DNA of 64,000 nt. It comes from Candidatus Latescibacterota bacterium. GTDB lineage: Bacteria > Latescibacterota > UBA2968 > UBA8231. The notes under the pieces were generated by a model. It was not told the DNA's origin, searched no databases, and saw nothing but the letters and a program-made list of their open reading frames with translations. Shown here piece after piece: positions 3,178 to 38,158 of this stretch. A program made the translations under genes and the position numbers. The DNA lies in assembly GCA_007571365.1 (NCBI GenBank), contig RKRN01000058.1, forward strand, positions 3,842-67,841, given 5' to 3'. Within the stretch, counting starts at the first letter, position 1, and the number at the start of each line of letters is the position of its first letter.

Positions 3178-4320
3178 TTAAAAGTACGTCATTAACTTGT
3201 CCCACAGCCCCATGCGGCCGATGCTCTTTTCGGCGTGGATGGGCACCACGGCCAGTAGGCTGTCGCCCAGCGAGACTCGCAGCTTGCCCAGTTCAGTTCC
3301 GGCCGCGACGGGTGCCGTAAATTCTTCGGGCAGATCTAGGTGGCGGACGAGCTGCTTCTTCTGTTCGGGGGTAAGCACGGCAACTACGGTGTCTTGGGCC
3401 AAGACGCGCACCTCTGGCTCTATGCCCCAGTTGAGCACGACCTTGCCCATCAGTTCGCCGGTTTCGACGATGGGTACGCGCGAGAAGTTATCAAAGCCCC
3501 AAGTTAGCAGGCGGCGGGTTTCTCGGTTGCGGACGCTCGTAGAGGGGGCCCCTAAGATCACAGAGATTAGGCGCATGTCGCGGCGCATGGCTGTGGAAAC
3601 GAGGCAGGAGCCGGCGCGCCGCGTATAGCCGGTTTTTAGCCCGTCGAGCCCTTGGAATCGCCCCAGCAGCTTGTTGGTGGCACGGAGTGTGAACTTGCCG
3701 TTGCGAAAGGGCTTGCGGCGGGTAGATGACCATTGCAGGACCTCGGGATGATGGGCCAAAAGCTCGCGGGCGATCTTGGACAGGTCGTGGGCTGTGCTTA
3801 GGTTGCCCTTGCCGGGCGGGGTGTTGTCGAGGCCGTGGACATTGACAACGCGCGTGTCGTGCATGCCGAGGCTTTGAGCGCGCTCGTTCATCCGCCTGAC
3901 AAAGCTGGCGGTTGAGCCGCTGACGTGCTCGGCAATAGCGACGCAAGCATCGTTGGCCGAGGCAATAGCCGCAGCCTCCATCAGCTCCCGCAGGGTAAAG
4001 ACCTCGCCCTTCTTCAAATAGACCTGAGAACCGTTGGTACGCGCCGCACGCCGGGAGATCCGCACTTTGTCGTCTAGCGAGACTTTGCCGGCTTTGACCA
4101 ATTCGAGAACCACGAGTTGGAGCATCAGCTTTTGGGTGCTGGCAGGCGAGCGCTGCCTATCTGGATGATGGGCAAAAAGGACAGTACCGCTTTCGGCTTC
4201 GAGCAAGATGGCGGCGGCATACGGCGGCTTTGGGCCAGGGTCGAAGACAGCAGCTTGCAATGGTACGGAGAATAAACAGATGACGACACACAGCGAACGA
4301 ATATGCATTGTTTTTCTCAT
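3178..4320 (-). CDS. D-alanyl-D-alanine carboxypeptidase (peptidase S11, PBP5/6-like)
   Basis: Signal peptide, SxxK (STQK), SxN (SAN) and KTG (KTGYT) motifs in the canonical order. Confidence 0.85.
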   Translation of the reverse strand: MRKTMHIRSLCVVICLFSVPLQAAVFDPGPKPPYAAAILLEAESGTVLFAHHPDRQRSPASTQKLMLQLVVLELVKAGKVSLDDKVRISRRAARTNGSQVYLKKGEVFTLRELMEAAAIASANDACVAIAEHVSGSTASFVRRMNERAQSLGMHDTRVVNVHGLDNTPPGKGNLSTAHDLSKIARELLAHHPEVLQWSSTRRKPFRNGKFTLRATNKLLGRFQGLDGLKTGYTRRAGSCLVSTAMRRDMRLISVILGAPSTSVRNRETRRLLTWGFDNFSRVPIVETGELMGKVVLNWGIEPEVRVLAQDTVVAVLTPEQKKQLVRHLDLPEEFTAPVAAGTELGKLRVSLGDSLLAVVPIHAEKSIGRMGLWDKLMTYF

Positions 4321-4502
4321 TAAAAAAAATAAGGGGCATTGCGAGGGAATGAACCTAAATGTAATAATTAAGGCATGTTAGGTCAATCAATAATATGGCA
4401 CCACCCATGTGGTCAGCGGGCGGAGCACGACGCTATTTTGAGTCGGCCGATGTTTGCTTGCGAGGGCCAGCAGCGCAATTTTAGAGTGAGAAAGGACGAC
4501 CT

Positions 4503-5486
4503 ATGACTACGGCAACCATACCTCAACTCACGTATAGCGGCAAGCCGATCGCCGTGGATCAGGTGGGACAGCTCCGCCGCTCGGATGATATAATTAGCGA
4601 CCGCGACGCGCTCTGGGAGCGGATGGAAGAAGACGGGTATTTGTTTTTGCCGGGGTATTTGGATCGGCGCGAAGTGTTGGCGGCGCGGGCAGAATTGTGC
4701 GATCGCCTCTTCAAGGCTGGGGTGTTAGACCCGACGCGGCCGCCGCTGGAAGGGGTAGTGGCCACGGGCAAGACGATCAATCCGGCGGCCACCGGCTCTT
4801 TTATGCCCGTTCTAGCGCGCAACAACCCGCCGCTGGACAAGGTCCTCTACGACGGCCCGATGATGAACTTCTACCAGTTCTTCTTAGGCGGCCCGGTTAG
4901 GCATTACGACTACACTTGGTTCCGCGCCAAGCAGCCGGGCACGCACACGGCGACGACCCCGCATTGCGACATCGTCTATATGGGCCGAGGCACCAAGGCG
5001 CTCTATACGTCTTGGACCCCCTTCAGCGACGTGCCCTACGAGATGGGGGGGCTGATGGTTTTGGAGGGTTCGCACGAGAACGAAGCGCTGAAACAAGGCT
5101 ACGGCCAAACTGATGTGGATGCGTTCTGCGAAAACGATGGCCCCGCCGCACGCCAAATCGTCGAGGCCGCACAAGAGCAGGGCCGCGAACTGACCCGAGA
5201 AGAACGCGCACAAATTCGCTGGAACTCATCTGGGGCCTACTCGCACGACGCGATTGCCGTGCGCGAGGAGCTACAGGGCCGCTGGCTGACAGCCGAGTAC
5301 CAGATGGGAGATTTGCTGGTATTCTGCATGTACCTGTTGCACGCTAGTTCGGACAACCAGACGGACCGCATTCGCCTGTCTGCTGATACGCGCTACCAGC
5401 GGTCTCACGAGCCAATAGACGACCGCTGGATCGGCGGCGATCCGCCCGCGCACGGCATCCGCGCCAAGCGGGGCATGGTGTGTTGA
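4503..5486 (+). CDS. Phytanoyl-CoA dioxygenase (PhyH) family Fe(II)/2-oxoglutarate oxygenase
   Basis: PhyH-like N-terminal pattern (GYLFLPGYL), H-x-D (HCD), and a distal His in LLHASS. Confidence 0.65.
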   Translation: MTTATIPQLTYSGKPIAVDQVGQLRRSDDIISDRDALWERMEEDGYLFLPGYLDRREVLAARAELCDRLFKAGVLDPTRPPLEGVVATGKTINPAATGSFMPVLARNNPPLDKVLYDGPMMNFYQFFLGGPVRHYDYTWFRAKQPGTHTATTPHCDIVYMGRGTKALYTSWTPFSDVPYEMGGLMVLEGSHENEALKQGYGQTDVDAFCENDGPAARQIVEAAQEQGRELTREERAQIRWNSSGAYSHDAIAVREELQGRWLTAEYQMGDLLVFCMYLLHASSDNQTDRIRLSADTRYQRSHEPIDDRWIGGDPPAHGIRAKRGMVC

Positions 5487-26774: not shown

Positions 26775-26922
26775 TTTCTGCCTCCATCGCTCGTATCCTG
26801 TTCAGTCGCTGTCGAATCAAGGCGATCTCTTTTTTGGGAGTGCTACTGCCACGAGTGGACTTCTTTTGCAACGCATGAAGCACATAAATGGTCTCGCTAA
26901 TTCTGACGGCGTGGCGGGCCAT
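26767..26922 (-). pseudogene. 5'-truncated HigB/Gp49-like (RelE/ParE superfamily) toxin remnant, 51 codons
   Basis: Hand translation gives MARHAVRISETIYVLHALQKKSTRGSSTPKKEIALIRQRLNRIRAMEAEND. This matches only the C-terminal ~45 aa of ~100-120-aa Gp49-type toxins. Its stop overlaps the antitoxin ATG, and an in-frame TGA closes the frame just upstream. Confidence 0.6.
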
Positions 26923-26977
26923 ACTACAACAGATTGCGGCGCAGCAGTCAACGCTTTTTCAGCTCAGCAGACCTGAT

Positions 26978-29900
26978 ATGCCCGGCCAATTGTTCACGCA
27001 CTATTTTCTCACCGACGGCATAAAGGCCACGGCGGAGTGGCAAGCGTCTCGGCCGGAAGCGTTTGCTGCGTTTAGGAACGGCGTTGCCCACCGCTACGAC
27101 GCTCTTAGCGGTGCCCGCAATCCCAACGAAGCGCGCACCGAGGACGAGCTGATTCGTCCGGTTTTGGAGCTATTGGGATGGACCGAGTACGTACCGCAGC
27201 CCAGGGCCGCCGGCCACGAGGACATTCCCGATCACCTGCTTTTTGCTGACGCCGAATCCAAGGCGCGGTCTGGCAATTCCTTCCAGTACGCGACCGTAGT
27301 GGAAGAGAGCAAGCGCTTTGGGCTGGCGCTCGACAGCCGGGACCCGACGCAGCGTGGGACGCCACACGGTCAGATGCTGCGCTACTTAGCAACGGCTGAA
27401 ATCGAGTCCGAGGGGCGCCTTCGCTGGGGCATCCTCACCAATGGCCGGGTCTGGCGGCTGTACGACTATCGCGCCCGGCCGCGGGCTAGCAGCTACTTTG
27501 AAGCCGACTTGGCCGCACTCGACGAACACGGCTGGCGCGTCTTTTACCTGCTGTTCCGCCGTGCGTCCTTTGTCCGGCAACAAGGGGCCACGGCTACGTT
27601 CCTCGAAGCGGCACTGGCCGAAGGGCGGCGTTATGAGGAACAGGTCGCGCAGGATCTTTCCGGGGTGGTGTTTGAGCGGGTATTTCCCAACCTCGTCAAT
27701 GCGCTGGCCGAGCAAGCGGGAGCAAGCCTCGCCGACAGCCGCGATGCGGCCCTGATCTTGCTCTATCGCTTGCTCTTTGTGCTCTACGCCGAGGACCGGG
27801 GGCTGCTGCCGGTCAACGACGCGCGCTACGACGACTATGGTTTGCGAAAGCCGGTGCGCGACCCGGTGGCGCGTAGGATGGCCGAAGGGGACACGTATTC
27901 GGCGGTAGCTACTAATTATTACGACCACCTGACGACGCTATTTAAGCTCATCGACAAGGGCGACCAATCCATCGGCCTGTCTCCGTATAACGGCGGCCTG
28001 TTTGCCATGGCGGCCGCGCCGTTGCTGGAAACGGTCCGCTTGGCCGACGCAGCGATCGCCCCCATCATCTACGACTTGAGCCACGCCGAGGATGCACAGG
28101 GTGTGCGCCGCTTTGTCAACTACCGCGACATGTCGGTACAGCAGCTGGGCTCCATTTACGAGCGGCTGCTGGAGCGCAAGCCGGTGCGCGGCGACAACGG
28201 CACCATTGCCATTCGCCCCAATCCCTATGCCCGCAAGGACAGCGGCAGTTTTTACACTTCGCAAGAATTGGTTGATCTGATCGTCGAGCGGACTTTGAAG
28301 CCGTTGGCTGAAGAGCGGCTCAAAGCCTTTGAAAACAAAGCCACCGCGTTCAAGAGCGACGGCCGCGCCAAGCGGGAACGGCGGGCGGAGCTCGAGCGGC
28401 TCGATCCGGCCGTGGCGGTTTTGGACCTCAAGGTGTTAGACCCAGCCATGGGTAGCGGGCACTTTCTGGTCACGGCCGTGGATTTCTTGTCGGACTATAT
28501 CGCCGAGTTGATCGAGTATGTTCCGGCTGTCCCGGAGTGGCTCAATGGCGAGTACGCATCGCCGTTGGTGGGGCGCGTGGCGGCGATTCGGGACGACATT
28601 CGCCAACGGGCTGCCGCCTCAAAGTGGGTCTTGGACGAGGCCCAACTTACCGATCAGGCCATCATCCGCCGCATGGTGCTCAAGCGCTGTATTTACGGGG
28701 TGGATAAGAACCGGCTGACGGTCGAGTTGGCCAAGGTGTCGCTGTGGCTGCACAGTTTTACGGTGGGTGCGCCGCTGTCGTTTCTCGATCACCACCTGCG
28801 CTGCGGCGACTCGCTGATTGGCCTGCGGGTGCGGGACGCCACCGATGCGTTGCACCGGCTCGGCGGGATGTTTGCCAGCAGTGCCATTGCCGGGGCCGAG
28901 ATGGCCACTGAAGGGATGCAGCGCATTGAGGAAATGTCCGATGCCGATGTGGCCGAGGTGCAGGAGTCGGCGGTGCTATTCGGCGGGGTGGAGCAGACGA
29001 CCGCCGACCTGCGCGGCTTGCTCAACTTTCTCTGTGGCGGGCGTTGGCGCACGGCGGGTATGAAGAAGAAGGAACTGGCTGAATTTGAGGGGCCGCTGGT
29101 GGCGACGCTCGGCCAGCACACGGCGAAGGCGTATGAGTTGTTGGCGCGGGGGCCGGCGGAAATAGGCGATTCGGCCGCGCAGTTTGCCGAGCTGTGGCGG
29201 GCGGCGCGGTCCATCGCCGAGCGGGAGGGTTTTCTGCATTGGGAGGTGGCTTTTCCGGGGGTGTGGTGGCAGTGGCAAGATGCGCGTCCGCACGGCGGCT
29301 TTGACGCGGTGATTGGCAATCCGCCGTGGGACCGCATCAAGCTGCAAGAGGTTGAGTGGTTTGCTACGCGGGATCGAGCACTCGCGCTCGCGCCGACGGC
29401 GGCAGCACGACGCCGGGGCATTCAGAAGTTGCGCGGTCGGGGAACACCGCTTGCGGCAGAGTTCGATGCCGCGAAAGCGCAGGCCGATCAATTCGGGCAA
29501 CTGGTGCGGGCCTCTGGGCATTATCCGTTGCTGAGCAGCGGCGACATCAACCTGTATTCGCTGTTCGTGGAGCGGGCGGTGAGCCTGATTAAACCCGATG
29601 GTATCGTCGGCTTGCTGACGCCGTCGGGCATTTATGCCGACAAGACGGCGGCGCGGTTTTTCCAGTCGGTTTCGACGAGCGGGCGCGTGGGCGGCCTGTT
29701 CGATTTTGAGAACAAGAAAATTTTCTTCAAAGATGTTCACGCTTCATTCAAATTCTGCGCCCTCATTTTGGGCGGCGAGGAGCGCCAGTTCGACCAGACC
29801 GAATGCGCCTTTTTCCTGCACGACACCAAGGCGATTCACGATGCGGACCGTTGCTTCCCGCTGACGCCGGACGATTTCACCCGCGTGAATCCGAATACTG

Positions 29901-30949
29901 GCACGGCTCCGGTGTTTCGCAGTCGGCGCGATGCGGAGATTACGCGCCGCATCTACGAGCAGCATCCGGTGCTGGTGGACCGCTCAGCAGGCACAGAGGA
30001 GCGCGTGTGGCCGGTGAAGTACGCCACAATGTTTCACATGGCCAACGACTCGCACCTTTTTATAACAGCAAAACAACTCAATGAGGAAGGGTTTTATCCG
30101 GTTGCGGGCAATCGCTGGCAGAAGGGCGAGGCGTTGTATTTGCCGTTGTACCAGGGCCGAATGATCTGGCACTTTGACCACCGTGCGAATTCTGTTCGCG
30201 TCAATCCTGAGAGTACGCACAATCCGTATCTCAGCGAGGAAGTCACCGAGGCGCAGCACGCGGATTCCGATTTCTTGCCCCAAGCACAGTATTGGGTGCC
30301 AGCCCACAATGTAGAGGCGATGCTACCCCAAAGTTGCGGATACGCTTTGGGCTTCCGCGACATTACCAATCCCACTAACGAAAGGACGACGGTTGCCGCT
30401 GTCGTACCGCAGGTTGGATGTGGACATACATTGCCAGTCCTTGTGCCGGCTGAACGCGACTTTGACGGCGAGAGCGCAGCCTGCCTGCTGGCCAATCTCA
30501 ACAGCTTCTGTTTCGATTACGTTGCGCGTCAGAAGGTTCAGGCGACTCACCTTACATGGTACATCGTCGAACAACTCCCCGTCATCGCTCCCGCCGCCTA
30601 CGACCGTAAATTCGGCACCACAACCGCCCGCGCCCTCGTCCGCAATCACGTCCTCCGCCTCACATACACCGCCCACGACCTAGCTCCTTTCGCCCGCGAC
30701 CTCGGCTACGACGGCCCGCCCTTTATATGGGACGGAGAGGAACGCCGCCACCTGCGCGCCCGTCTCGACGCGCTGTATTTTCACCTCTACGGCCTGTCGC
30801 GGGACGACGCGGCCTACATCCTCGACACCTTTCCCACCGTCCGCCACGCCGACGAAGCCGCCTTTGGCAAATACCGCACCCGCGATATGACGCTGGCCTA
30901 CATGAATGCGCTAGACGCCGGGGATGCGGAAGCAGTGGTGGCAGTGTAG
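26978..30949 (+). CDS. Type IIG-like fused restriction endonuclease / N6-adenine DNA methyltransferase (about 1320 aa)
   Basis: N-terminal PD...ExK candidates (IPDHLLF ... VVEESK). SAM motif VLDPAMGSGHFLV and catalytic GNPPWDRIK. Long C-terminal region is a putative TRD. Preferred start is ATG 26978 (MPGQLFTHYFL); ATG 26888 would overlap the toxin remnant. Confidence 0.75.
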   Translation: MPGQLFTHYFLTDGIKATAEWQASRPEAFAAFRNGVAHRYDALSGARNPNEARTEDELIRPVLELLGWTEYVPQPRAAGHEDIPDHLLFADAESKARSGNSFQYATVVEESKRFGLALDSRDPTQRGTPHGQMLRYLATAEIESEGRLRWGILTNGRVWRLYDYRARPRASSYFEADLAALDEHGWRVFYLLFRRASFVRQQGATATFLEAALAEGRRYEEQVAQDLSGVVFERVFPNLVNALAEQAGASLADSRDAALILLYRLLFVLYAEDRGLLPVNDARYDDYGLRKPVRDPVARRMAEGDTYSAVATNYYDHLTTLFKLIDKGDQSIGLSPYNGGLFAMAAAPLLETVRLADAAIAPIIYDLSHAEDAQGVRRFVNYRDMSVQQLGSIYERLLERKPVRGDNGTIAIRPNPYARKDSGSFYTSQELVDLIVERTLKPLAEERLKAFENKATAFKSDGRAKRERRAELERLDPAVAVLDLKVLDPAMGSGHFLVTAVDFLSDYIAELIEYVPAVPEWLNGEYASPLVGRVAAIRDDIRQRAAASKWVLDEAQLTDQAIIRRMVLKRCIYGVDKNRLTVELAKVSLWLHSFTVGAPLSFLDHHLRCGDSLIGLRVRDATDALHRLGGMFASSAIAGAEMATEGMQRIEEMSDADVAEVQESAVLFGGVEQTTADLRGLLNFLCGGRWRTAGMKKKELAEFEGPLVATLGQHTAKAYELLARGPAEIGDSAAQFAELWRAARSIAEREGFLHWEVAFPGVWWQWQDARPHGGFDAVIGNPPWDRIKLQEVEWFATRDRALALAPTAAARRRGIQKLRGRGTPLAAEFDAAKAQADQFGQLVRASGHYPLLSSGDINLYSLFVERAVSLIKPDGIVGLLTPSGIYADKTAARFFQSVSTSGRVGGLFDFENKKIFFKDVHASFKFCALILGGEERQFDQTECAFFLHDTKAIHDADRCFPLTPDDFTRVNPNTGTAPVFRSRRDAEITRRIYEQHPVLVDRSAGTEERVWPVKYATMFHMANDSHLFITAKQLNEEGFYPVAGNRWQKGEALYLPLYQGRMIWHFDHRANSVRVNPESTHNPYLSEEVTEAQHADSDFLPQAQYWVPAHNVEAMLPQSCGYALGFRDITNPTNERTTVAAVVPQVGCGHTLPVLVPAERDFDGESAACLLANLNSFCFDYVARQKVQATHLTWYIVEQLPVIAPAAYDRKFGTTTARALVRNHVLRLTYTAHDLAPFARDLGYDGPPFIWDGEERRHLRARLDALYFHLYGLSRDDAAYILDTFPTVRHADEAAFGKYRTRDMTLAYMNALDAGDAEAVVAV

Positions 30950-30962
30950 GTATATATGTCAG

Positions 30963-30991
30963 TTGACAGGGTTTCGATTTGTATTTTTTAT
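30963..30991 (+). promoter_or_regulatory. Possible promoter for the DUF2188 cassette
   Basis: TTGACA, a 17-nt spacer, then TTTTAT (weak -10). Confidence 0.3.
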
Positions 30992-31034
30992 TACCGAAAC
31001 GGATTTCAATGATCTAACGGAGAGGAATTTAGCG

Positions 31035-31268
31035 GTGTCAGGGAAAAACCAACACGTTGTGAAAGGGGAGGATGGTTGGGCTGTTCGAGGCGCAGGCAAC
31101 TCGAAATACACATCTCACCACGGTACTCAATATCAGGCGATTAACCAAGCACGTGAAATAGCCCAAAACCAAAAAAGTGAAGTTGTGATTCATAGGCCCG
31201 ATGGTAGAATTCGAGACAAGGACTCTTACGGCAATGATCCCTTGCCGCCAAAAGACAAGAAACACTGA
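31035..31268 (+). CDS. DUF2188-like small protein
   Basis: GKNQHVVKGEDGWAVRGAGNSKYTSHHGTQYQAINQAREIAQNQKSEVVIHRPDGRIRDKDSYG. GTG 31035 follows GGAGAGG. AT-richer than the flanks. Confidence 0.55.
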   Translation: MSGKNQHVVKGEDGWAVRGAGNSKYTSHHGTQYQAINQAREIAQNQKSEVVIHRPDGRIRDKDSYGNDPLPPKDKKH

Positions 31269-31325
31269 CCTTCAGATTAGCAAATTCGTCAAGATTGATC
31301 GGTCCCAATCGAAATTCGATCTTTC

Positions 31326-31412
31326 TTTGAGGTCTAACCGCACCCGCGACGTGACGCTGGCGTATGTGAATGCACCGGCCGCGGGGATGCAGAAGCGGTG
31401 GTGGCGGTCTAA
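31326..31412 (+). repeat. Decayed copy 1 of the type IIG gene 3' end
   Basis: aaccgcacccgcgacgtgacgctggcgtatgtgaatgca...gcggtggtggcggtctaa aligns to 30873..30949 with a 1-nt deletion. Would encode NRTRDVTLAYVNA...DAEAVVAV. Confidence 0.8.
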
Positions 31413-31513
31413 AAAGAAGAATTCGCAATTTTTGCAAAGTCCGTTGCATCAATGGTTCGGACAATTTATTGATAGATTCCAATTCGTCAAAAGCAAAGTG
31501 GTTTCTCGGCCAC

Positions 31514-31711
31514 ATGCCACGTAAAATTAGAGAACTCATCAAAGATCTCGAAAATGCTGGATTTGAAAAACGTGGCGGAAAAGGAAGCCATAGAAAGTTT
31601 GTGCATCCTAACGTTTCAAAATCTGTGATACTTGCCGGTCAGCTTGGTGCTGACGCAAAACACTATGAAGAAAAGGCGATCAGAGTCGCTATTGAGGAGT
31701 CAAAAAAATGA
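31514..31711 (+). CDS. hicA: HicA mRNA-interferase toxin
   Basis: MPRKIRELIKDLENAGFEKRGGKGSHRKFVHP. The true start is ATG 31514, inside the longer track ORF. Confidence 0.8.
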   Translation: MPRKIRELIKDLENAGFEKRGGKGSHRKFVHPNVSKSVILAGQLGADAKHYEEKAIRVAIEESKK

Positions 31712-31947
31712 AAATGAGTTCCCGTTATGTCAAAATAGTGGAATGGTCGGACGAGGATCAGTGCTATGTCGGCCGTTGTCCGGATCTTTTTTACGGTGGA
31801 TGTCACGGCGATAACGAACAAGCCGTATTTTCAGAACTGTGCCGCATCGTTGAAGAGACCATTGAACTATACCAACAAGACGGCAGGCCATTACCTGCAC
31901 CGACCTCCGGTAAGGACTATGCCAACAAGATGTTAGAAATTGCCTGA
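31708..31947 (+). CDS. hicB: HicB antitoxin
   Basis: YVKIVEWSDEDQCYVGRCPDLFYGGCHGDN...DGRPLPAP. ATGA overlap with hicA. Confidence 0.8.
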   Translation: MKMSSRYVKIVEWSDEDQCYVGRCPDLFYGGCHGDNEQAVFSELCRIVEETIELYQQDGRPLPAPTSGKDYANKMLEIA

Positions 31948-31973
31948 CCACCCACTATAGTTAGCGGCGTAAT

Positions 31974-32128
31974 CATTTCCACCTCTACGGCCTGCCGCGG
32001 GACGGCGCGGCCCATCTTCCCCATCGTGCGCCGTGCTGACGAAGCCGCCTTCGGAAAACCTACCTCACCCACGACATGACGCTAGCGTACATGAATGCGC
32101 TAGACGCCGGGGATGCGGAATCAGCATA
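31974..32128 (+). repeat. Decayed copy 2 of the type IIG gene 3' end
   Basis: Aligns to 30777..30931 with internal deletions. A 33-nt identical run, tacatgaatgcgctagacgccggggatgcggaa, sits at 32088..32120 and 30899..30931. Confidence 0.9.
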
Positions 32129-32250
32129 GCCCCGCACAGACTTCTTCTTCGCTCAACAGAAAAATTCAGTTTTTATTTTGTTCTATCGGGAGTATAACGC
32201 GGGGGATAGTTCCCTACTCCCTGAACGTCATAAAAAGGAGAGAGGAAGCT

Positions 32251-32914
32251 ATGAATAGCCGGCCGGCCTTAATAACCTTTATCGGTGCAGTGATTAGTGC
32301 GATTGGTGGGTTTTGGGCATCTGGGTCTAAACCCAAGCCGGCCCGAATAATCGTAGTCGTCGGTGTAGTGATTAGCGCGATTGGTGCATTTTGGGCATCC
32401 CAGCAACAGGATAGCTTCAACCTAAATCTGCTAAATAAGAGTGAGGAAATTGCCCGGCTGAATCAAAAACTTGCGAGCTTGGTAAGTGGAGGGGACAGCT
32501 TCTGCTACTTGGATATTTCAAGTCTCAACTCAGTCAAAAACACTGGCCAGTTCGTGGTAGTAGTACAACCTCTACGATGTGCAGGCTAGGATTGTCGACT
32601 TGGAGAAATTTGATCAACTCGAGGGGAAGCTATCGTTTGCCACGCTGAAGCAGACAGACACGAACATTTCAATCGGCAACCTCATCTCTTCTTCTGTTTG
32701 GATGCTGCATCCAGTTACGCTCGGTAATGGCAACACGCCGGGGTTCAACATCTTCTTCTCCGCCCGCAATGGGTTTTTCAATCAAATCTTACGGCTCAAG
32801 AAAATCCATGGAAAATGGGTACACGCTACGAAGGTACTGAGAGAAGATAAGGTGATCTATGAGGAGATTGACGACGAATTCCCTCGAACCGATGAGGGCA
32901 AAGTCGAGTGGTAG
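32251..32914 (+). pseudogene. 2-TM membrane protein with coiled-coil and beta-rich C-terminal domain. The frame is broken near 32561..32589, or this is two overlapping genes.
   Basis: ATG 32251 follows AAAGGAGAGAGG. ORF 32251..32589 and ORF 32579..32914 join sensibly after a 1-nt shift (..QFVVVV / YNLYDVQARIVD..). There is no SD before GTG 32579. Confidence 0.5.
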
Positions 32915-32976
32915 AAGCATCTTGTATTTTGGGTATTGGCGCATTTAGGCTTTGTTTGTGCAAAGCACTGCTCGCC

Positions 32977-33065
32977 CTATCCATGTGCTCGATACGTTTC
33001 CCATCGTCCGCAAGCAGGACGAAAAAGCCTTCGGGAAATACCGCACAAAGGACCTGATTCATACG
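32977..33065 (+). repeat. Decayed copy 3 of the type IIG gene 3' end (most diverged)
   Basis: Translates IHVLDTFPIVRKQDEKAFGKYRTKDLIH, compared with resident YILDTFPTVRHADEAAFGKYRTRDMTL. It runs directly into the ATPase P-loop fragment. Confidence 0.75.
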
Positions 33066-33072
33066 GAACATA

Positions 33073-33117
33073 ATTGGCCGGCAAGAATGGCGTCGGCAAG
33101 ACGACCGTTTTAGAGGC
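33073..33117 (+). repeat. 45-nt fragment of the ATPase gene P-loop region
   Basis: attggccggcaagaatggcgtcggcaagacgaccgttttagaggc matches 34030..34074 with one mismatch. Confidence 0.9.
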
Positions 33118-33309
33118 CCTAACAAAACATCCTGCTGGCGTCGCACGGCTGCGTCGATCACGGCCTTGGTCCGCGCTTGGGTCAACGCCGGGCATTTTGT
33201 TAGAGCTTCTAAATGGGATAGGTTCTAGTCAGCCAGTTCCACGATTGCTTACTTCACCGGGTCTTGGTGGCTTGTAGGCCACCCAAGGCGACAATTACTT
33301 GGAGGGACT

Positions 33310-33522
33310 ATGGCAGCTAATTTTTGGACCATTCCTGGGATTATCAAAAACGGTGTGGTTATGCCCCAGAGTGATACCCCTTTGCCTAACGGCGTCCACG
33401 TGGAAATTCTCATTCGGTCGGTGGATATGCCACCGGAGCTAAAGTCCGAATTAGACCAGTGGGGCCAAGCAAGCGACGAAGCTTGGGCATTGATTGAGCA
33501 ATGGGAAGCGGAAGAGAGGTGA
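33310..33522 (+). CDS. Putative antitoxin (small DUF104/AbrB-like N-terminal beta segment)
   Basis: GIIKNGVVMPQSDTPLPNGVHVEILI motif. Overlaps the MazF-like gene by 22 nt. GGAGGGA RBS. Confidence 0.55.
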   Translation: MAANFWTIPGIIKNGVVMPQSDTPLPNGVHVEILIRSVDMPPELKSELDQWGQASDEAWALIEQWEAEER

Positions 33523-33863
33523 GTTGCGGCGATATTCACTGGGTTGAGCTACCCGTTGATAACGGCCGTGAGCAACGCGGACGTCGTCCCGCAGTGGTTA
33601 TGCAGGATGACCATTACGCAGGTAATTTGCCTGTTGTCCTTGTGGTCCCCCTGACGACAGCGAGAACAGCAAGCCGTTTTGTCGGTACAATATTCATTCA
33701 TCCCACGATGGAAAATGGACTGAGAGCGGAATCAGTGGCCTTGGTGTTTCAGCTACGGGCCATTGACCGTCGTCGTCTTCAGGAACGCATTGGAACTGTG
33801 AGTACACAGGTGTTGAATGCTATGTTTGAAGAGCTTGGAAAACTCACGGGTCGCAAGATGTAG
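33501..33863 (+). CDS. PemK/MazF family toxin
   Basis: GDIHWVELPVDNGREQRGRRPAVVMQDD...VVLVVPLTT pattern. Confidence 0.8.
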   Translation: MGSGREVSCGDIHWVELPVDNGREQRGRRPAVVMQDDHYAGNLPVVLVVPLTTARTASRFVGTIFIHPTMENGLRAESVALVFQLRAIDRRRLQERIGTVSTQVLNAMFEELGKLTGRKM

Positions 33864-33923
33864 ACTTAGTCGCCCTACATCCCGTCCATTCAAAACTCGC
33901 GCTCTTAAAAGAAAGTAAACGCT

Positions 33924-35099
33924 ATGGCCCCAAAACGACTCGACGACTGCCTGCACCTTCCGAACCTGTCGATAGCAGGTTTTCGGGCGATCAAAGAGCT
34001 TTCCATTGCACACTTGGGCCGCGTGACGCTATTGGCCGGCAAGAATGGCGTCGGCAAGACGACTGTTTTAGAGGCGGTCCGAGTCTATGCAGCGCACGGT
34101 CACTACGAAGTTCTGGCCGATCTGTTGGAAAGCCGCCAAGAGATGGCCGCCGCTATGGTCGAAAGTAGCTCACGAGAATTCGTAGCCGATTTTGAGGCCC
34201 TATTCCACGGACGAGATGTGTCGAGATGCGCCCGCATCGCAATCGGTTCAGAAGATACGGGCCAACTCAGGATTGAAGAGGCTTCGCTGAGCGCTGAGCA
34301 GACTTCTCATATTGACGGAATTCTATCTCGGTATATTGAAAAGGGCTTCACACAGGCATTCAAAGTCGCATGGTTAGGCTCCGAGCAGATACTGCCATGG
34401 GTGTTACCTATTCAAGGATCGGCTGTGGCTAGCCCAGTAGAACGTTATAGCGATTGCGCGTACCTATACCTACGGAATTTATTGCAAAAAACCGAATTGC
34501 CGCCTCCAATAGGATGTCAGCTTTTGGGGCCGAGCGTGTTGAGTAACGAAGAAATTGCACGGTTTTGGAATACTATCGCGCTGACGGACGATGAGGACCG
34601 GGCAGTACAGGCACTGAAGCTGATTTTCGGCAACGACTTGGAGCGGGTGGGGGTGATCCGCAACGACGTATCATCTGCGGGTCACAAAAAATATATGGAG
34701 CGAGTCGTCGCAAAACTCCACGGACAAGCCCGTCCCGTCCCTCTGCAAAGCCTCGGCAACGGCGCACTGCACTTGGCCGGCGTTACCTTGGCACTGATCG
34801 ACAGCCGCGACGGATTCTTGCTCATTGACGAGGCGGAAAACGGCGTTCACCATGCCATACAGCCTGACTTCTGGCGCATGGTCTTTAAGACGGCGTCCGC
34901 CAACAACGTGCAGGTCATTGCAACGACGCACAGCTTTGATTGCGTCCGCGGATTCGCCCAAGCCGCAGTTGAGTGCGAGGAAGCCGAAGGGGTGCTTGTG
35001 CGTCTTGAGCGAAAAGATGAGGAAATGTGGGCCGTTGAGTATTCGGAGCGCAATCTCAAAGCCGTTGTCAAACAGCATATTGGTATGGAGGTGAGGTAG
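33924..35099 (+). CDS. ABC-type (AAA_21-like) ATPase
   Basis: Walker A GKNGVGKTT, Walker B/D-loop LLIDEAENGVH, and H-loop ATTHS. Confidence 0.85.
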   Translation: MAPKRLDDCLHLPNLSIAGFRAIKELSIAHLGRVTLLAGKNGVGKTTVLEAVRVYAAHGHYEVLADLLESRQEMAAAMVESSSREFVADFEALFHGRDVSRCARIAIGSEDTGQLRIEEASLSAEQTSHIDGILSRYIEKGFTQAFKVAWLGSEQILPWVLPIQGSAVASPVERYSDCAYLYLRNLLQKTELPPPIGCQLLGPSVLSNEEIARFWNTIALTDDEDRAVQALKLIFGNDLERVGVIRNDVSSAGHKKYMERVVAKLHGQARPVPLQSLGNGALHLAGVTLALIDSRDGFLLIDEAENGVHHAIQPDFWRMVFKTASANNVQVIATTHSFDCVRGFAQAAVECEEAEGVLVRLERKDEEMWAVEYSERNLKAVVKQHIGMEVR

Positions 35100-35103
35100 G
35101 TGA

Positions 35104-35730
35104 ATGGCTAATAATGACCGCGTCCTCTTAGTTGAGGGACAAAACGATAAGCATGTCATTCGGCATTTTCGCAATCGCCATCAAGCTATGCCAGAATTCT
35201 GTATTCAAGATAAAGGAGGGATAGAAGAACTTCTTGAAGACATCGGCTTGGAGATTTTAGCTCCCAACCACAAAGCCGTTGGCATCTTAGTGGATGCAAA
35301 CGACGATTTGAACGCCCGCTGGGATGCTGTGGCCACTAGGCTTCGCGAGGAGAATATCGAGATGCCCAGCAGTCCTGATCCAACCGGCACCATTATAGAC
35401 AGCAATCCCCGCGTCGGCATCTGGTTGATGCCCGACAATGAGTCTCCCGGCGAACTCGAAAATTTCGTCGCAGAGATGATCCCCCAAAACGATCCGATCT
35501 GGCCACGGTCCACGAACTACATCGATAGCATTCCAGAGAAAGACCGAAAATTTACCGCAAAAAAGAGATTGCGGGCCCAACTCCACGCTTGGCTAGCGAC
35601 GCGAGAAGACCCTAGGCAAATGGGTCTCGCCATTAGCACCCAAGACCTGTGTGTAGATGGAACACTCAGCACAGCATTCGCTAAGTGGCTGCGGCAATTG
35701 TTCGAGCAAGCTCCCGTTGCGTCAAAATAG
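35104..35730 (+). CDS. Small TOPRIM-like protein (DUF3226/DUF4276/RloB-type by pattern)
   Basis: N-terminal VLLVEGQNDKHVI (conserved Glu) and acidic cluster ILVDANDD. Starts 4 nt after the ATPase stop with a GGAGGTGAGG RBS. The last ~6 codons lie in the hicB-derived repeat. Confidence 0.6.
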   Translation: MANNDRVLLVEGQNDKHVIRHFRNRHQAMPEFCIQDKGGIEELLEDIGLEILAPNHKAVGILVDANDDLNARWDAVATRLREENIEMPSSPDPTGTIIDSNPRVGIWLMPDNESPGELENFVAEMIPQNDPIWPRSTNYIDSIPEKDRKFTAKKRLRAQLHAWLATREDPRQMGLAISTQDLCVDGTLSTAFAKWLRQLFEQAPVASK

Positions 35731-35775
35731 TGGAATAGTCTGATGAGGACCAGTGCTAGGTCGGCCGTTGTCCGG
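35712..35775 (+). repeat. Decayed copy of the hicB 5' segment
   Basis: tcccgttgcgtcaaaatagtggaatagtctgatgaggaccagtgctaggtcggccgttgtccgg aligns to 31720..31783. Contains stops in the hicB frame. Confidence 0.85.
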
Positions 35776-35781
35776 GTCGCT

Positions 35782-37365
35782 TCAGTGAGCAATAGCCAGT
35801 TCGACGCCGGTCAATTTTACTTGCTCTCGGCGATCTTTTTGCCCTGCCACTAGCCGCACGGCGACCTCGTTTGTGCCCGTCCGCAAAAAAGAACCATCCA
35901 CTGCAAATTCTACGCTGACCCCGGCCATTTGTTGCGCGACCGGACGAGTGGGATAGCTGGCCCAAAACAGCGGTGCTGTCTGCTGGCGCGACCAGCCAGC
36001 TCTGGAAACTTGGGCTTGGTGCCAAGGGAGGGCGTGGCCGTTGAGTTCGACTTCGAGGCGGTCCGCCGCGGGCAAATGCTCCAAACGCAAGGCCAAGCCG
36101 CCGGTGGCGTCGGCCACATCATCGGCGACGCGGATGCGGAGCGTCGGCCCCAAGCTGGGGCTGTCGGTGGGCAAGGGCACTGGAAGCGGTGTCGAGGGAT
36201 GGGCCAAGCGGAAGGCGGCACTGTGGCCCGCCGTGGGACTGAAGGCCATGGTGCTGCTGATTTCGTAGCACTTGTCGAGTTTCTTCAGGGTGTTGAGGTC
36301 GGAGAATTCAGCGGCGGTTTGTCGATTCCACTCGGGCGACATGGTATAGAAGTTGTATAGGTAGATGCCGTCGGCCCCGTCAGTGAGCCAGCGCAGGGCC
36401 AAGGCGCGGAGGAAGCGCCGGTCGCTGTGGCGGGTGGCTTCAATGCAGCCATAGACGAGGCAAGGGGTAGAAGCCGCCGCACGGACGAACTCATCGACCG
36501 GGGTCTCAAAGGAGATAAAGCCGCCACCCACGACGACGATATCGACGAGGCCGGTCTCGATCCATTCGTCGACGTCGAGGCCAAGGCGCCGCGAGTCGGC
36601 CAAGGTCGGGGGGACGCGGACGGCCAGTTGCAAGGGCTTGCCCCGTTGGGCACTGACCTCGCGGAGCCGCGCCTTGATCTTTTGCACCAGATCGGTCATC
36701 AGGTAGCTGTTGGCCGTGGCTTCGGCCATGCGGAAGAAGGCCGAATGGCGCATGAAGTCCAGCTCAATGCCATTGACGTCAAAACGCTCGAAAACCTCGC
36801 AGGCGATGCGCCGCAGGTGTTCGCGCACCTCGGCGTGGGCGTAGTCGAGGCCGGTGCGGATGCCCCACTCAACCGACTTTTCGGGGAATGCTTCGCCGGG
36901 GCGGCCCATGAGCAGGTGGGGCTGCTCGCGGCGGAAGCGACCGTAGCCGGGATGGGATGGGTCGATCTGGTAGTGGCTGTTCATGCGGATGCGGGGAAAG
37001 AAGGGGATCGCCGCCGCACGGCACAGGTGTGCAAGTGCGGTCAACGGCCCGCCGCACTCGGCGATTAGGTTCTGGAGGTTGGCGGCGATCCGCGCTTCGA
37101 CGCCGGGTGTGGCCGAGTGGACGAAGGAAGGGGCTGTCGCGCCGAGGCCGCGGCGGTCGTCGCCGAATTTCTCGCCAATTTCCGTCTCGAACTGATAGAC
37201 CTCATGGTCGCCCGTGCTCCACCAGAATGCGCCGCCGGTGCCAGCATAGCCATCGACGATTTTCTCTTTGAGGTCGGCGACCGAGACGTTGTCCTCAGCC
37301 GTGAAAATCCAGCCGTCGTCGGTGAAGATGATGGGGGGCGGAGAGGCGGGATGTTTTGGGGACAT
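35782..37365 (-). CDS. TIM-barrel glycoside-hydrolase-like protein (GHL10-type pattern), function unknown
   Basis: 527-aa ORF with core GC content and an NGIELDFMRH motif. Function is not established. Confidence 0.7.
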   Translation of the reverse strand: MSPKHPASPPPIIFTDDGWIFTAEDNVSVADLKEKIVDGYAGTGGAFWWSTGDHEVYQFETEIGEKFGDDRRGLGATAPSFVHSATPGVEARIAANLQNLIAECGGPLTALAHLCRAAAIPFFPRIRMNSHYQIDPSHPGYGRFRREQPHLLMGRPGEAFPEKSVEWGIRTGLDYAHAEVREHLRRIACEVFERFDVNGIELDFMRHSAFFRMAEATANSYLMTDLVQKIKARLREVSAQRGKPLQLAVRVPPTLADSRRLGLDVDEWIETGLVDIVVVGGGFISFETPVDEFVRAAASTPCLVYGCIEATRHSDRRFLRALALRWLTDGADGIYLYNFYTMSPEWNRQTAAEFSDLNTLKKLDKCYEISSTMAFSPTAGHSAAFRLAHPSTPLPVPLPTDSPSLGPTLRIRVADDVADATGGLALRLEHLPAADRLEVELNGHALPWHQAQVSRAGWSRQQTAPLFWASYPTRPVAQQMAGVSVEFAVDGSFLRTGTNEVAVRLVAGQKDRREQVKLTGVELAIAH

Positions 37366-37571
37366 AATCGTTAAGAGCCTATACGAAAATTGATTTCCTG
37401 TTAATAAAAAATTCTTGGCAACCTACGCTTTCTTCACCTAACCTATTGACCCTCAATCAAGTCCGAATTGTCGATCGTTTGACATGACTTTCGTATAGGA
37501 TCTAAGTGCAACTTTTATACCATTTTGCTAATCGTCTATCCTAATAAGTACCCTCCGAGAGCAGGGGGTAA

Positions 37572-38027
37572 TTAGGGCACTAAAAAGTCAAATTCCTCCT
37601 TTTCCTCCTTTGAGAATGCAAATCGCCATAGTTGATCGAGCCATCCATGATCTGCAAATAGATTGTAGAGTATAAGTATGAACATACAAAGATAGTAAAT
37701 AATACCCAGAGGTGCAGCCATGGCGAACCAAAGAAATGCTCGCCATGGATGTGGTCTTTGGTATACAAACCCCGCTAATATAAAAAGAATAATACCTATA
37801 GCAAACTCCCAATGGCGAAGTCCATATATAAATAATAAAATCAGATGACTACCAATTACTAAGTGTCCTACGAGCAACAATATCTTACTTTGATAAAAGA
37901 ACCCTATGGCGATACATAGGGTTCCTATCGGGAATAGGATAATAGTAGCCTCAATAATCATGACAGTGCGGAACTCTCGAGTGGCTAACGGGCCACACAG
38001 AACACTTATGAAAGGGCCATCCGTCAC
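37572..38027 (-). CDS. Small polytopic membrane protein in an AT-rich insert
   Basis: 4-5 hydrophobic helices. Markedly AT-rich compared with neighbours. Start is GTG 38027 or ATG 37961. Confidence 0.6.
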   Translation of the reverse strand: MTDGPFISVLCGPLATREFRTVMIIEATIILFPIGTLCIAIGFFYQSKILLLVGHLVIGSHLILLFIYGLRHWEFAIGIILFILAGFVYQRPHPWRAFLWFAMAAPLGIIYYLCMFILILYNLFADHGWLDQLWRFAFSKEEKEEFDFLVP

Positions 38028-38059
38028 ACCATGGTCCTGAATCGTAATCCATACATGAC

Positions 38060-38158
38060 TTTCTCTTTGAGATCAGCCACCGAGACGTTGTCCGCAGCCG
38101 TGAAAATCCAGCCGTCGTCGGTGAAGATGATGGGGGGCGGAGAGGGCTTGGGGGCCAT
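38060..38158 (-). repeat. Remnant copy of the first ~100 nt of gene 35782..37365
   Basis: Aligns to 37261..37365 with a ~51-nt identical core (cagccgtgaaaatcc...ggcggagagg). Retains the CCATGTCAGC junction with the upstream gene stop, the same 10-mer as at 39230..39239. Confidence 0.9.

Follow-up and report, generated by a model that had tools for sequence, protein, structure and literature searches.

A PDC-M38-type gene pair encoding an ABC ATPase and a DUF3226 protein in a Candidatus Latescibacterota genome, a candidate PARIS/AbiL-like module

In a 64,000-nucleotide stretch of a Candidatus Latescibacterota bacterium genome (contig RKRN01000058.1, positions 3,842 to 67,841; hereafter the window, at its full length), we found two adjacent genes that encode an ATP-binding cassette (ABC) ATPase of 391 aa (33924..35099, + strand) and a DUF3226 protein of 208 aa (35104..35730, + strand). 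We consider it probable (about 0.7) that they form one operon-like module of the PDC-M38 family, in which an AbiLi-like AAA_21 ATPase is combined with a separate TOPRIM-type nuclease, the DUF3226 protein; by analogy with characterised systems, the pair is most likely a candidate abortive-infection module resembling PARIS and AbiL. Modules of ABC ATPases and TOPRIM proteins, including OLD, Gabija, PARIS and AbiL, are a major theme of bacterial immunity, and an earlier inspection of the letters (hereafter the sequence-only reading) had singled out these two genes as a possible defence pair of this class.

Identification of the gene pair and its assignment to PDC-M38

Both open reading frames (ORFs) start with ATG and lie 4 nt apart, as the sequence-only reading had claimed, and the motifs quoted in it (GKNGVGKTT, LLIDEAENGVH and ATTHS in the ATPase, VLLVEGQNDKHV and ILVDANDD in the smaller protein) were all found at the expected places. 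Homologues numbered 2599 for the ATPase and 1146 for the 208-aa protein, and comparison with eight syntenic relatives gave ratios of nonsynonymous to synonymous substitution (dN/dS) of 0.17-0.36 for both genes (0.24-0.36 for the ATPase gene), showing that both are under purifying selection; the ORFs are therefore real genes and not chance frames. The ATPase has the length of its relatives, with 100% coverage. For the 208-aa protein, all of 1.84 billion representatives of clusters at 50% identity were searched, and relatives were present in 2300 clusters at E <= 1e-3 and in 1392 at E <= 1e-10.

Searches with profile hidden Markov models (HMMs), which the sequence-only reading had recommended, identified both families. 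The ATPase matched Pfam AAA_21 (E 3.4e-19, profile positions 1-299 of 304) as well as AAA_15, and the 208-aa protein matched Pfam DUF3226 (PF11536) over its full length (E 1.5e-52; 178.9 bits versus a gathering cut-off of 27; profile positions 2-208 of 208). In PADLOC, the two proteins were assigned to a single two-gene candidate system: the ATPase to PDC-M38A (PDLC04611; E 9.9e-76, residues 12-391 on profile positions 2-383 of 383) and its partner to PDC-M38B (PDLC04624; E 2.8e-40, residues 5-201 on positions 13-219 of 220), apart from which the 208-aa protein matched nothing of note. Since the A and B models are matched full length by adjacent, co-directional genes, of which that for the ATPase comes first, we assign the pair as a further member of the catalogued candidate kind PDC-M38; it is not an unclassified pair. 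The PDCs, 145 candidates for phage defence, were obtained computationally from genes located within BREX, DISARM and type I restriction-modification (R-M) systems (bioRxiv 10.1101/2024.01.29.577857). PDC-M38 pairs resemble them in being found embedded in methylase-based defence systems, as PDCs were defined, and the window copy shows no structural difference from PDC-M38 other than a seven-residue C-terminal extension, and is distinguished by this and by its uncultured Latescibacterota host. No mention of DUF3226, PF11536 or PDC-M38 was found in a literature search.

The junction between the genes reads gag gtg agg TAG gtga ATG, and a strong Shine-Dalgarno-like sequence for the DUF3226 gene, GGAGGTGAGG, lies within the E-V-R-stop codons of the ATPase gene (35089..35098, +). 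This overlap with the final ATPase codons implies that translation of the two genes is coupled. The same bases (35086-35099) thus specify an invariant ATPase C-terminus and the Shine-Dalgarno sequence of the next gene, and the C-terminal residues may be invariant because of this double constraint.

Co-occurrence and distribution of the two families

We collected 86 loci encoding DUF3226 homologues, 80 from contigs chosen as one genome per species and six from identical-protein look-ups. In 84 of them, the gene directly upstream, transcribed in the same direction, encoded an ATPase homologue (phmmer E 1e-52 to 1e-204), and the remaining two were cut by contig ends, so that the co-occurrence of the two families, which the sequence-only reading had wished to see examined, is essentially absolute. 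The gap between the genes was 3 or 4 nt in 53 of the 86 loci; negative gap values resulted from naive choice of the start codon. The full-length DUF3226 members among the best 150 representatives were about 200-275 aa, with shorter entries appearing to be partial, and from these lengths DUF3226 always forms a protein by itself, without fusion to the ATPase.

The hosts include Latescibacterota, Gemmatimonadota, Rhodothermales, Chloroflexota, Acidobacteriota, Nitrospirales, Binatia, Alpha- and Gammaproteobacteria, Spirochaetia and Entotheonella. Protein identities reach 65-80% between phyla, and the pair has spread horizontally. Pairing is kept at identities of 27-30%, on a Plesiomonas megaplasmid and on a 9.7-kb Acinetobacter tet(39) plasmid. 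On the Plesiomonas plasmid (locus L088; NZ_CP027853.1, 246302-248046), P2-like phage tail genes (tape measure, gpU/X/D-like) precede the distant pair by a few kb, and the pair may belong to the cargo of a P2-like prophage hotspot. In the phage genome collection searched, no DUF3226 homologue was found.

Fold and acidic residues of the DUF3226 protein

The suggestion of the sequence-only reading that the 208-aa protein has a minimal TOPRIM fold is supported by its predicted structure, its best structural match and its near-invariant acidic residues. An AlphaFold2 model built with 20 homologues had a mean predicted local distance difference test score (pLDDT) of 83.5 and a predicted template modelling score (pTM) of 0.81. 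Its core follows the order beta-alpha-beta-alpha-beta-alpha-beta (strand 6-10, helix 13-25, strand 33-36, helix 40-51, strand 58-63, helix 69-82 and hairpin 96-108), followed by a helical C-terminal half. The top Foldseek match in the PDB was 6njv, the C-terminal region of Xanthomonas campestris OLD, comprising a TOPRIM and a helical domain, with E 1.5e-3, probability 1.00, TM scores of 0.49/0.50 over the entire 206-residue target and a root-mean-square deviation (rmsd) of 6.8 A. Chains of PARIS AriB were lower in the same list (probability 0.23-0.28). In a viral structure library no significant match was obtained for the model, a RloB-like viral model reaching a probability of only 0.41.

Conservation was assessed in an alignment of 107 diverse members, from which the family profile was also made. 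In the first TOPRIM motif, VLLVEGQNDKHV (35122..35157, +), which contains E11, G12 and D15, E11 is present in 106 of 107 sequences and position 15 is D or E in all 107. The second motif, ILVDANDD (35284..35307, +), contains D64-A-N66 at the DxD position; D64 is invariant (107/107), and position 66 is N in 57 sequences and D in 50. A third acidic site may lie in the GIWLMPDN...GELE block (35416..35460, +), where G105, W107, P110 and E119 are each present in 107/107 members and N112 in 104/107. The metal-binding residues of AriB are E26, D30, D88, E90 and E122, and the substitution E26A ends defence (PMC11464382). E11, D15, D64, N/D66 and E119 occur in the order of the metal-binding residues of AriB and OLD, with equal E-x3-D spacing.

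Comparisons with individual families agreed with this arrangement. The 107-member profile aligned with AriB residues 18-63 at E 0.19, LLVEGxDDxH falling on RLLVEGRHD and E11/D15 on E26/D30. With hhalign, residues 4-68 aligned with P2 Old 391-457 (E 4.8e-4, probability 32%), placing E11/D15 on VEGKTE (EGxxE) and D64-A-N66 on D-C-D (DxD); this was a comparison of the family profile with one sequence, a search with the P2 Old C-terminus having given only five fragments. The Pfam OLD-like_TOPRIM model matched marginally at residues 5-27 (E 0.08), and all three alignments were in the same register. We regard the TOPRIM/OLD-like assignment as well supported, although not proven, because signals that are individually weak to moderate are independent and agree in register. 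In sequence searches of the PDB, the 208-aa protein itself matched only noise (antithrombin, E 0.34), and the profile search that gave the AriB alignment had a designed repeat protein as its top match, aligned spuriously in five tiny stretches, with only the AriB N-terminal motif being meaningful and that marginal.

Conserved motifs and a variable insert in the ATPase

In an alignment of 25 homologues, the nucleotide-binding motifs of the ATPase were strictly conserved. G39, K45 and T46 of the Walker A/P-loop GKNGVGKTT (residues 39-47; 34038..34064, +), D302 and E303 of the Walker B and D-loop region GFLLIDEAEN(GVH) (34812..34841, +) and H336 of the H-loop ATTHS (34920..34934, +) are invariant, as are Q144, E389 and R391. 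In the ABC signature-like segment LQSLGNGAL (34743..34769, +), S276-L-G278 is invariant, and N279 stands where D is usual. A central insert (residues about 121-200; 34284..34523, +) is variable and may represent the region that senses a trigger: among 11 relatives, mean identity was 30-42% for residues about 121-200 and 241-260, versus 72-84% for the nucleotide-binding core, and the DNA of roughly 34150-34700 could not be aligned with that of loci L004, L005 and L013.

The ATPase matched AbiLi (PDLC02336) over residues 14-386 (E 7.9e-47, profile positions 4-337 of 340). The AriA models of PADLOC covered only residues 241-337 (E 2.7e-22) and 271-339 (E 2.2e-15), and partial matches in PADLOC were to AriA, GajA, PtuA, HEC-01A (about 1e-14) and MAD3. 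Similarity to OLD (6p74) and GajA was weak and N-terminal. The homologues P0384 and P0390 (431-439 aa) end in a C-terminal DUF2188 domain, and in the window a stand-alone DUF2188 gene (30924-31268) overlaps the end of an R-M gene by 26 nt. DUF2188 and these ATPases may be functionally linked.

Weak matches to NCBIfam models of RecF, Rad50, SbcC and transporter nucleotide-binding domains could indicate a housekeeping ABC or DNA-repair system (RecF-like, SbcCD/Rad50-like or a transporter), or a pair in which DUF3226 is a non-catalytic regulatory partner. However, these matches are N-terminal, cover the Walker A region only and score far below curated cut-offs (RecF, 34 versus 172 bits; UrtD, 22 versus 304), no genes for membrane domains or repair partners adjoin the pair in the window, and the patchy distribution, foreign GC content and location in a variable hotspot are not those of a housekeeping system. 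The invariant acidic residues, moreover, argue for catalysis by DUF3226. A housekeeping assignment, which the sequence-only reading had named as a possible refutation, was thus looked for without any sign of it, and we consider this explanation very improbable.

Comparison with known defence systems

The pair has the same general design as several characterised systems, but when strict membership in PARIS, AbiL, OLD or Gabija was examined, either a defining partner or the required architecture was lacking in each case. Like lactococcal AbiL, it consists of two genes with the ATPase first, and the ATPase matches AbiLi over its full length; predicted structures of AbiLii (PMC13064643) and of DUF3226 both match OLD 6NJV best. 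The partner, however, is RloB-like in AbiL, whereas DUF3226 is a separate sequence family, and the small protein had no AbiLii or RloB match at E <= 1 in PADLOC and Pfam. With PARIS, the pair shares an ABC ATPase and a separate TOPRIM effector, linkage to restriction systems, an LLVEGxxD motif that aligns with E26/D30 of AriB and the same order of acidic residues. The effectors differ in size (308-316 aa for AriB versus 208 aa for the DUF3226 protein), the AriA models cover no more than parts of the ATPase, and neither an AriB nor a DUF4435 model matched the 208-aa protein. As models of AriB and of AbiLii both fail to match the small protein, the pair is neither PARIS nor AbiL in the strict sense. 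The sequence-only description of a split-OLD, PARIS or AbiL-like pair is therefore supported as to the class, an ATPase with a TOPRIM-like protein, but not as to strict membership in PARIS or AbiL.

The DUF3226 protein has the OLD C-terminal region as its best fold match and aligns, with weak statistics, in the E...DxD register of P2 Old. In OLD and GajA, however, the ATPase and TOPRIM domains are parts of one polypeptide, whereas the window pair is encoded by two separate ORFs, and no UvrD or GajB helicase gene adjoins it. With its domains always on separate polypeptides and no helicase, the pair is not OLD or Gabija. HEC-01 shows the same two-gene ATPase plus TOPRIM logic and the same embedding in Hma systems, but belongs to a different sequence family.

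Genomic setting in other genomes

The genes found immediately upstream of the pair are diverse. Sixty-two such neighbours contained 74 Pfam families, mostly unrelated, and included HmaB (four loci), type III methyltransferases (three), DrmMI (two) and type IIG enzymes (two). The clearest case of embedding is locus L015 (1557-10938), with the order HmaB, ATPase, DUF3226, a 268-aa SIR2-like gene and HmaC, in which the SIR2-like ORF matches models of SIR2 proteins associated with prokaryotic Argonautes (pAgo). Hma-embedded pairs are also present in L018, L044 and L059. In L042 (6758-10896), a type III methyltransferase gene is followed by the ATPase-DUF3226 pair and by two further ABC-ATPase genes (PD-T4-4_A and PDC-M47A models), an arrangement that, judged from these model matches, appears to be a cluster of several ATPase-based candidate systems.

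The association with methylase systems suggests a possible guard function against anti-restriction proteins. In an extreme form, the pair would be an accessory or guard of methylase-based restriction, similar to RloA/RloB, acting only in concert with the R-M or Hma system next to it; like PARIS, which senses Ocr (PMC11464382), it might respond to anti-restriction proteins and fire when restriction is blocked. Consistent with such a role are the four loci inside Hma and those after type III methyltransferase, DrmMI or type IIG genes, the pairs that directly follow the type IIG R-M gene of the window lineage in L019 and L004 and a gene of the same R-M family in the gammaproteobacterial L063, and the occurrence of RloB/AbiLii proteins in type I R-M operons (PMC10440598). 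However, about three-quarters of the loci have unrelated direct upstream neighbours, the pair stands alone on small plasmids, and 2.9 kb of cassettes separate the R-M gene from the pair in the window. In L007, the closest relative (3551-4771), deletion has left only the final ~145 nt of the R-M gene, while the intact pair and flanking core genes are kept. With most loci lacking an adjoining methylase and L007 retaining the pair, an obligatory R-M accessory was judged unlikely, and we give the explanation as a whole a low probability.

A plain toxin-antitoxin (TA) or addiction module, with DUF3226 as toxin and the ATPase as antitoxin, would stabilise islands and plasmids and have no role in phage defence. 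Pairs of AAA ATPases and TOPRIM_OLD proteins score as toxin-antitoxin systems in neutralisation assays, and one AAA pair tested in Escherichia coli gave no phage protection (PMC10440598). The presence of the pair on the 9.7-kb Acinetobacter plasmid and the abundance of TA genes (HicAB, MazEF) in the window island also fit this explanation. Against it, the pair is repeatedly found inside Hma or beside type III or type IIG methylase systems, the insert of the ATPase evolves fast, as is typical of a sensor, and AbiL and PARIS, its nearest characterised relatives, are phage defence systems. TA and defence roles are, moreover, compatible with each other. We consider a plain TA module improbable, to the same degree as an accessory of restriction.

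The window locus and its syntenic relatives

The window flanks are 88-91% identical to chromosomes represented by Candidatus Latescibacterota metagenome-assembled genomes. The sequence-only reading had placed the pair behind an R-M gene within a stack of cassettes, which proved correct. The R-M gene (26888..30949, +) encodes a type IIG (Eco57I/MmeI-like) enzyme of 1353 aa with Pfam Eco57I (E 6e-20), N6_Mtase and MmeI domains, and is followed by about 2.9 kb of small cassettes (30950..33872, +) containing DUF2188, HicAB, membrane (158 aa) and unknown (111 aa) ORFs and MazE-like/PemK genes. The GC content is 0.49 in the cassette region versus 0.62 in the flanks, and 0.53 in the pair versus 0.62-0.64 in neighbouring core genes. 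The cassettes are divided by partial copies of the R-M gene that cover its final 60-150 nt (31336-31411, 31975-32124 and 32988-33046), and no integrase or transposase was identified among the window ORFs tested. In syntenic L019, the whole stack is missing and homology resumes at window position 33872.

Several sequences in the region have been duplicated or displaced. A 45-nt copy (98% identical) of the Walker-A coding region of the ATPase gene (34031-34075) is present at 33073-33117, after a scar of the R-M 3' end; this copy and the ATPase gene bracket the MazEF/PemK cassette (33118-33875), and the arrangement resembles a long duplication of a target site or a scar left by recombination. HicA/HicB genes lie downstream of the pair in relatives (L004, 9396-9829; L005, 7321-7754), whereas in the window an intact hicAB is located upstream (31370-31947) and only a 74-nt hicB stub downstream, indicating rearrangement within the hotspot. 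Further downstream, a 97-nt direct repeat (92% identical; 37250-37346 and 38049-38145) of the 5' end of a 527-aa gene flanks a low-GC insert (37347-38048), which contains an ORF for a multi-pass membrane protein of 151 aa (37572-38027, minus strand) without a Pfam match and is missing in all syntenic relatives.

The stub (35709..35782, +; 74 nt) is a degenerate 5' remnant of hicB, a pseudogene fused to the end of the DUF3226 gene. Positions 35709-35778 are 87% identical to the 5' end of the window hicB (31717-31786), and the stub is 89% identical to the hicB found downstream of the pair in L004, L005 and L014. Most DUF3226 relatives are 201-204 aa and end in ...WLRQLFE followed by a stop codon, which is TAA or TGA in L005, L019 and L007 but CAA in the window, where the frame therefore runs on for seven foreign codons (QAPVASK) into the stub, to a new stop, TAG (35707..35730, +). 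The protein is thus extended rather than truncated. A truncated or chimeric effector, which the sequence-only reading had considered possible on finding that the gene ends in a hicB-derived repeat, is ruled out by the Pfam coverage (2-208/208) and the addition of only seven residues, although the repeat itself is real. The extension is predicted to be disordered (pLDDT < 50 for residues 204-208), and a 99%-identical 208-aa form (P0001) is present in an independent metagenome of the Joint Genome Institute (JGI).

Proposed mechanism and significance

In Escherichia coli PARIS, the one PARIS system with a known mechanism, a hexamer of AriA sequesters AriB, which is released in an ATP-requiring step when Ocr is bound and then dimerises and cleaves tRNA-Lys (PMC11464382); AAA ATPases likewise neutralise TOPRIM_OLD toxins (PMC10440598). 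By analogy, the ATPase of the window pair would oligomerise and keep the small nuclease inactive, acting as sensor, scaffold and antitoxin. A phage-derived trigger would be recognised, in an ATP-dependent manner, by the fast-evolving central insert, upon which DUF3226 would be released or activated and its metal site (E11, D15, D64, N66 and E119) would cut nucleic acid, which may be tRNA or another RNA, on the model of AriB, or DNA, on that of OLD. The infected cell would then cease to grow, resulting in abortive infection.

Several observations weigh against this interpretation and against the assignment on which it is based. The case for a TOPRIM fold is composed of several weak signals (Foldseek E 1.5e-3 with rmsd 6.8 A, hhalign 32%, HMM E 0.08-0.19), and the second Asp of DxD is Asn in the window copy and in about half of the DUF3226 family. 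The AlphaFold model of the ATPase (pLDDT 50.5) was too poor for a fold search, and a scan for promoters and terminators near the pair revealed no consensus above chance. About three-quarters of the loci have non-defence genes directly upstream. In addition, HEC-01 gave no defence in published assays (bioRxiv 10.1101/2024.01.29.577857).

A broader interpretation is that DUF3226 pairs represent a distinct and very widespread form of split OLD immunity, comprising the 2300 clusters at 50% identity and always split, in which a minimal TOPRIM nuclease of about 200 aa, often with DxN, would be held by an AbiLi-like ATPase; its hypervariable insert would sense phage counter-defence proteins, so that the pair would guard type IIG/III R-M and Hma systems. 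The substrate or chemistry of the nuclease may differ from those of OLD (DNA) and AriB (tRNA-Lys). We regard this as a tentative proposal and rather unlikely, and prefer the operon-like PDC-M38 module with a PARIS/AbiL-like role as described above.

For the window itself, the result is mainly a confident annotation and no surprise. For the family, the DUF3226 branch of ATPase/TOPRIM modules is large, extends across many phyla and always consists of two genes. Our analysis yields an active-site hypothesis (E11, D15, D64, N/D66 and E119) and points to residues ~121-200 of the ATPase as a candidate sensor region, and natural contexts are available for comparison, with pairs embedded in Hma, located behind type IIG or type III methylase genes, or borne on plasmids. 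If validated, a PADLOC candidate would become a defined system, and the pair would offer a probe of restriction guarding beyond PARIS.

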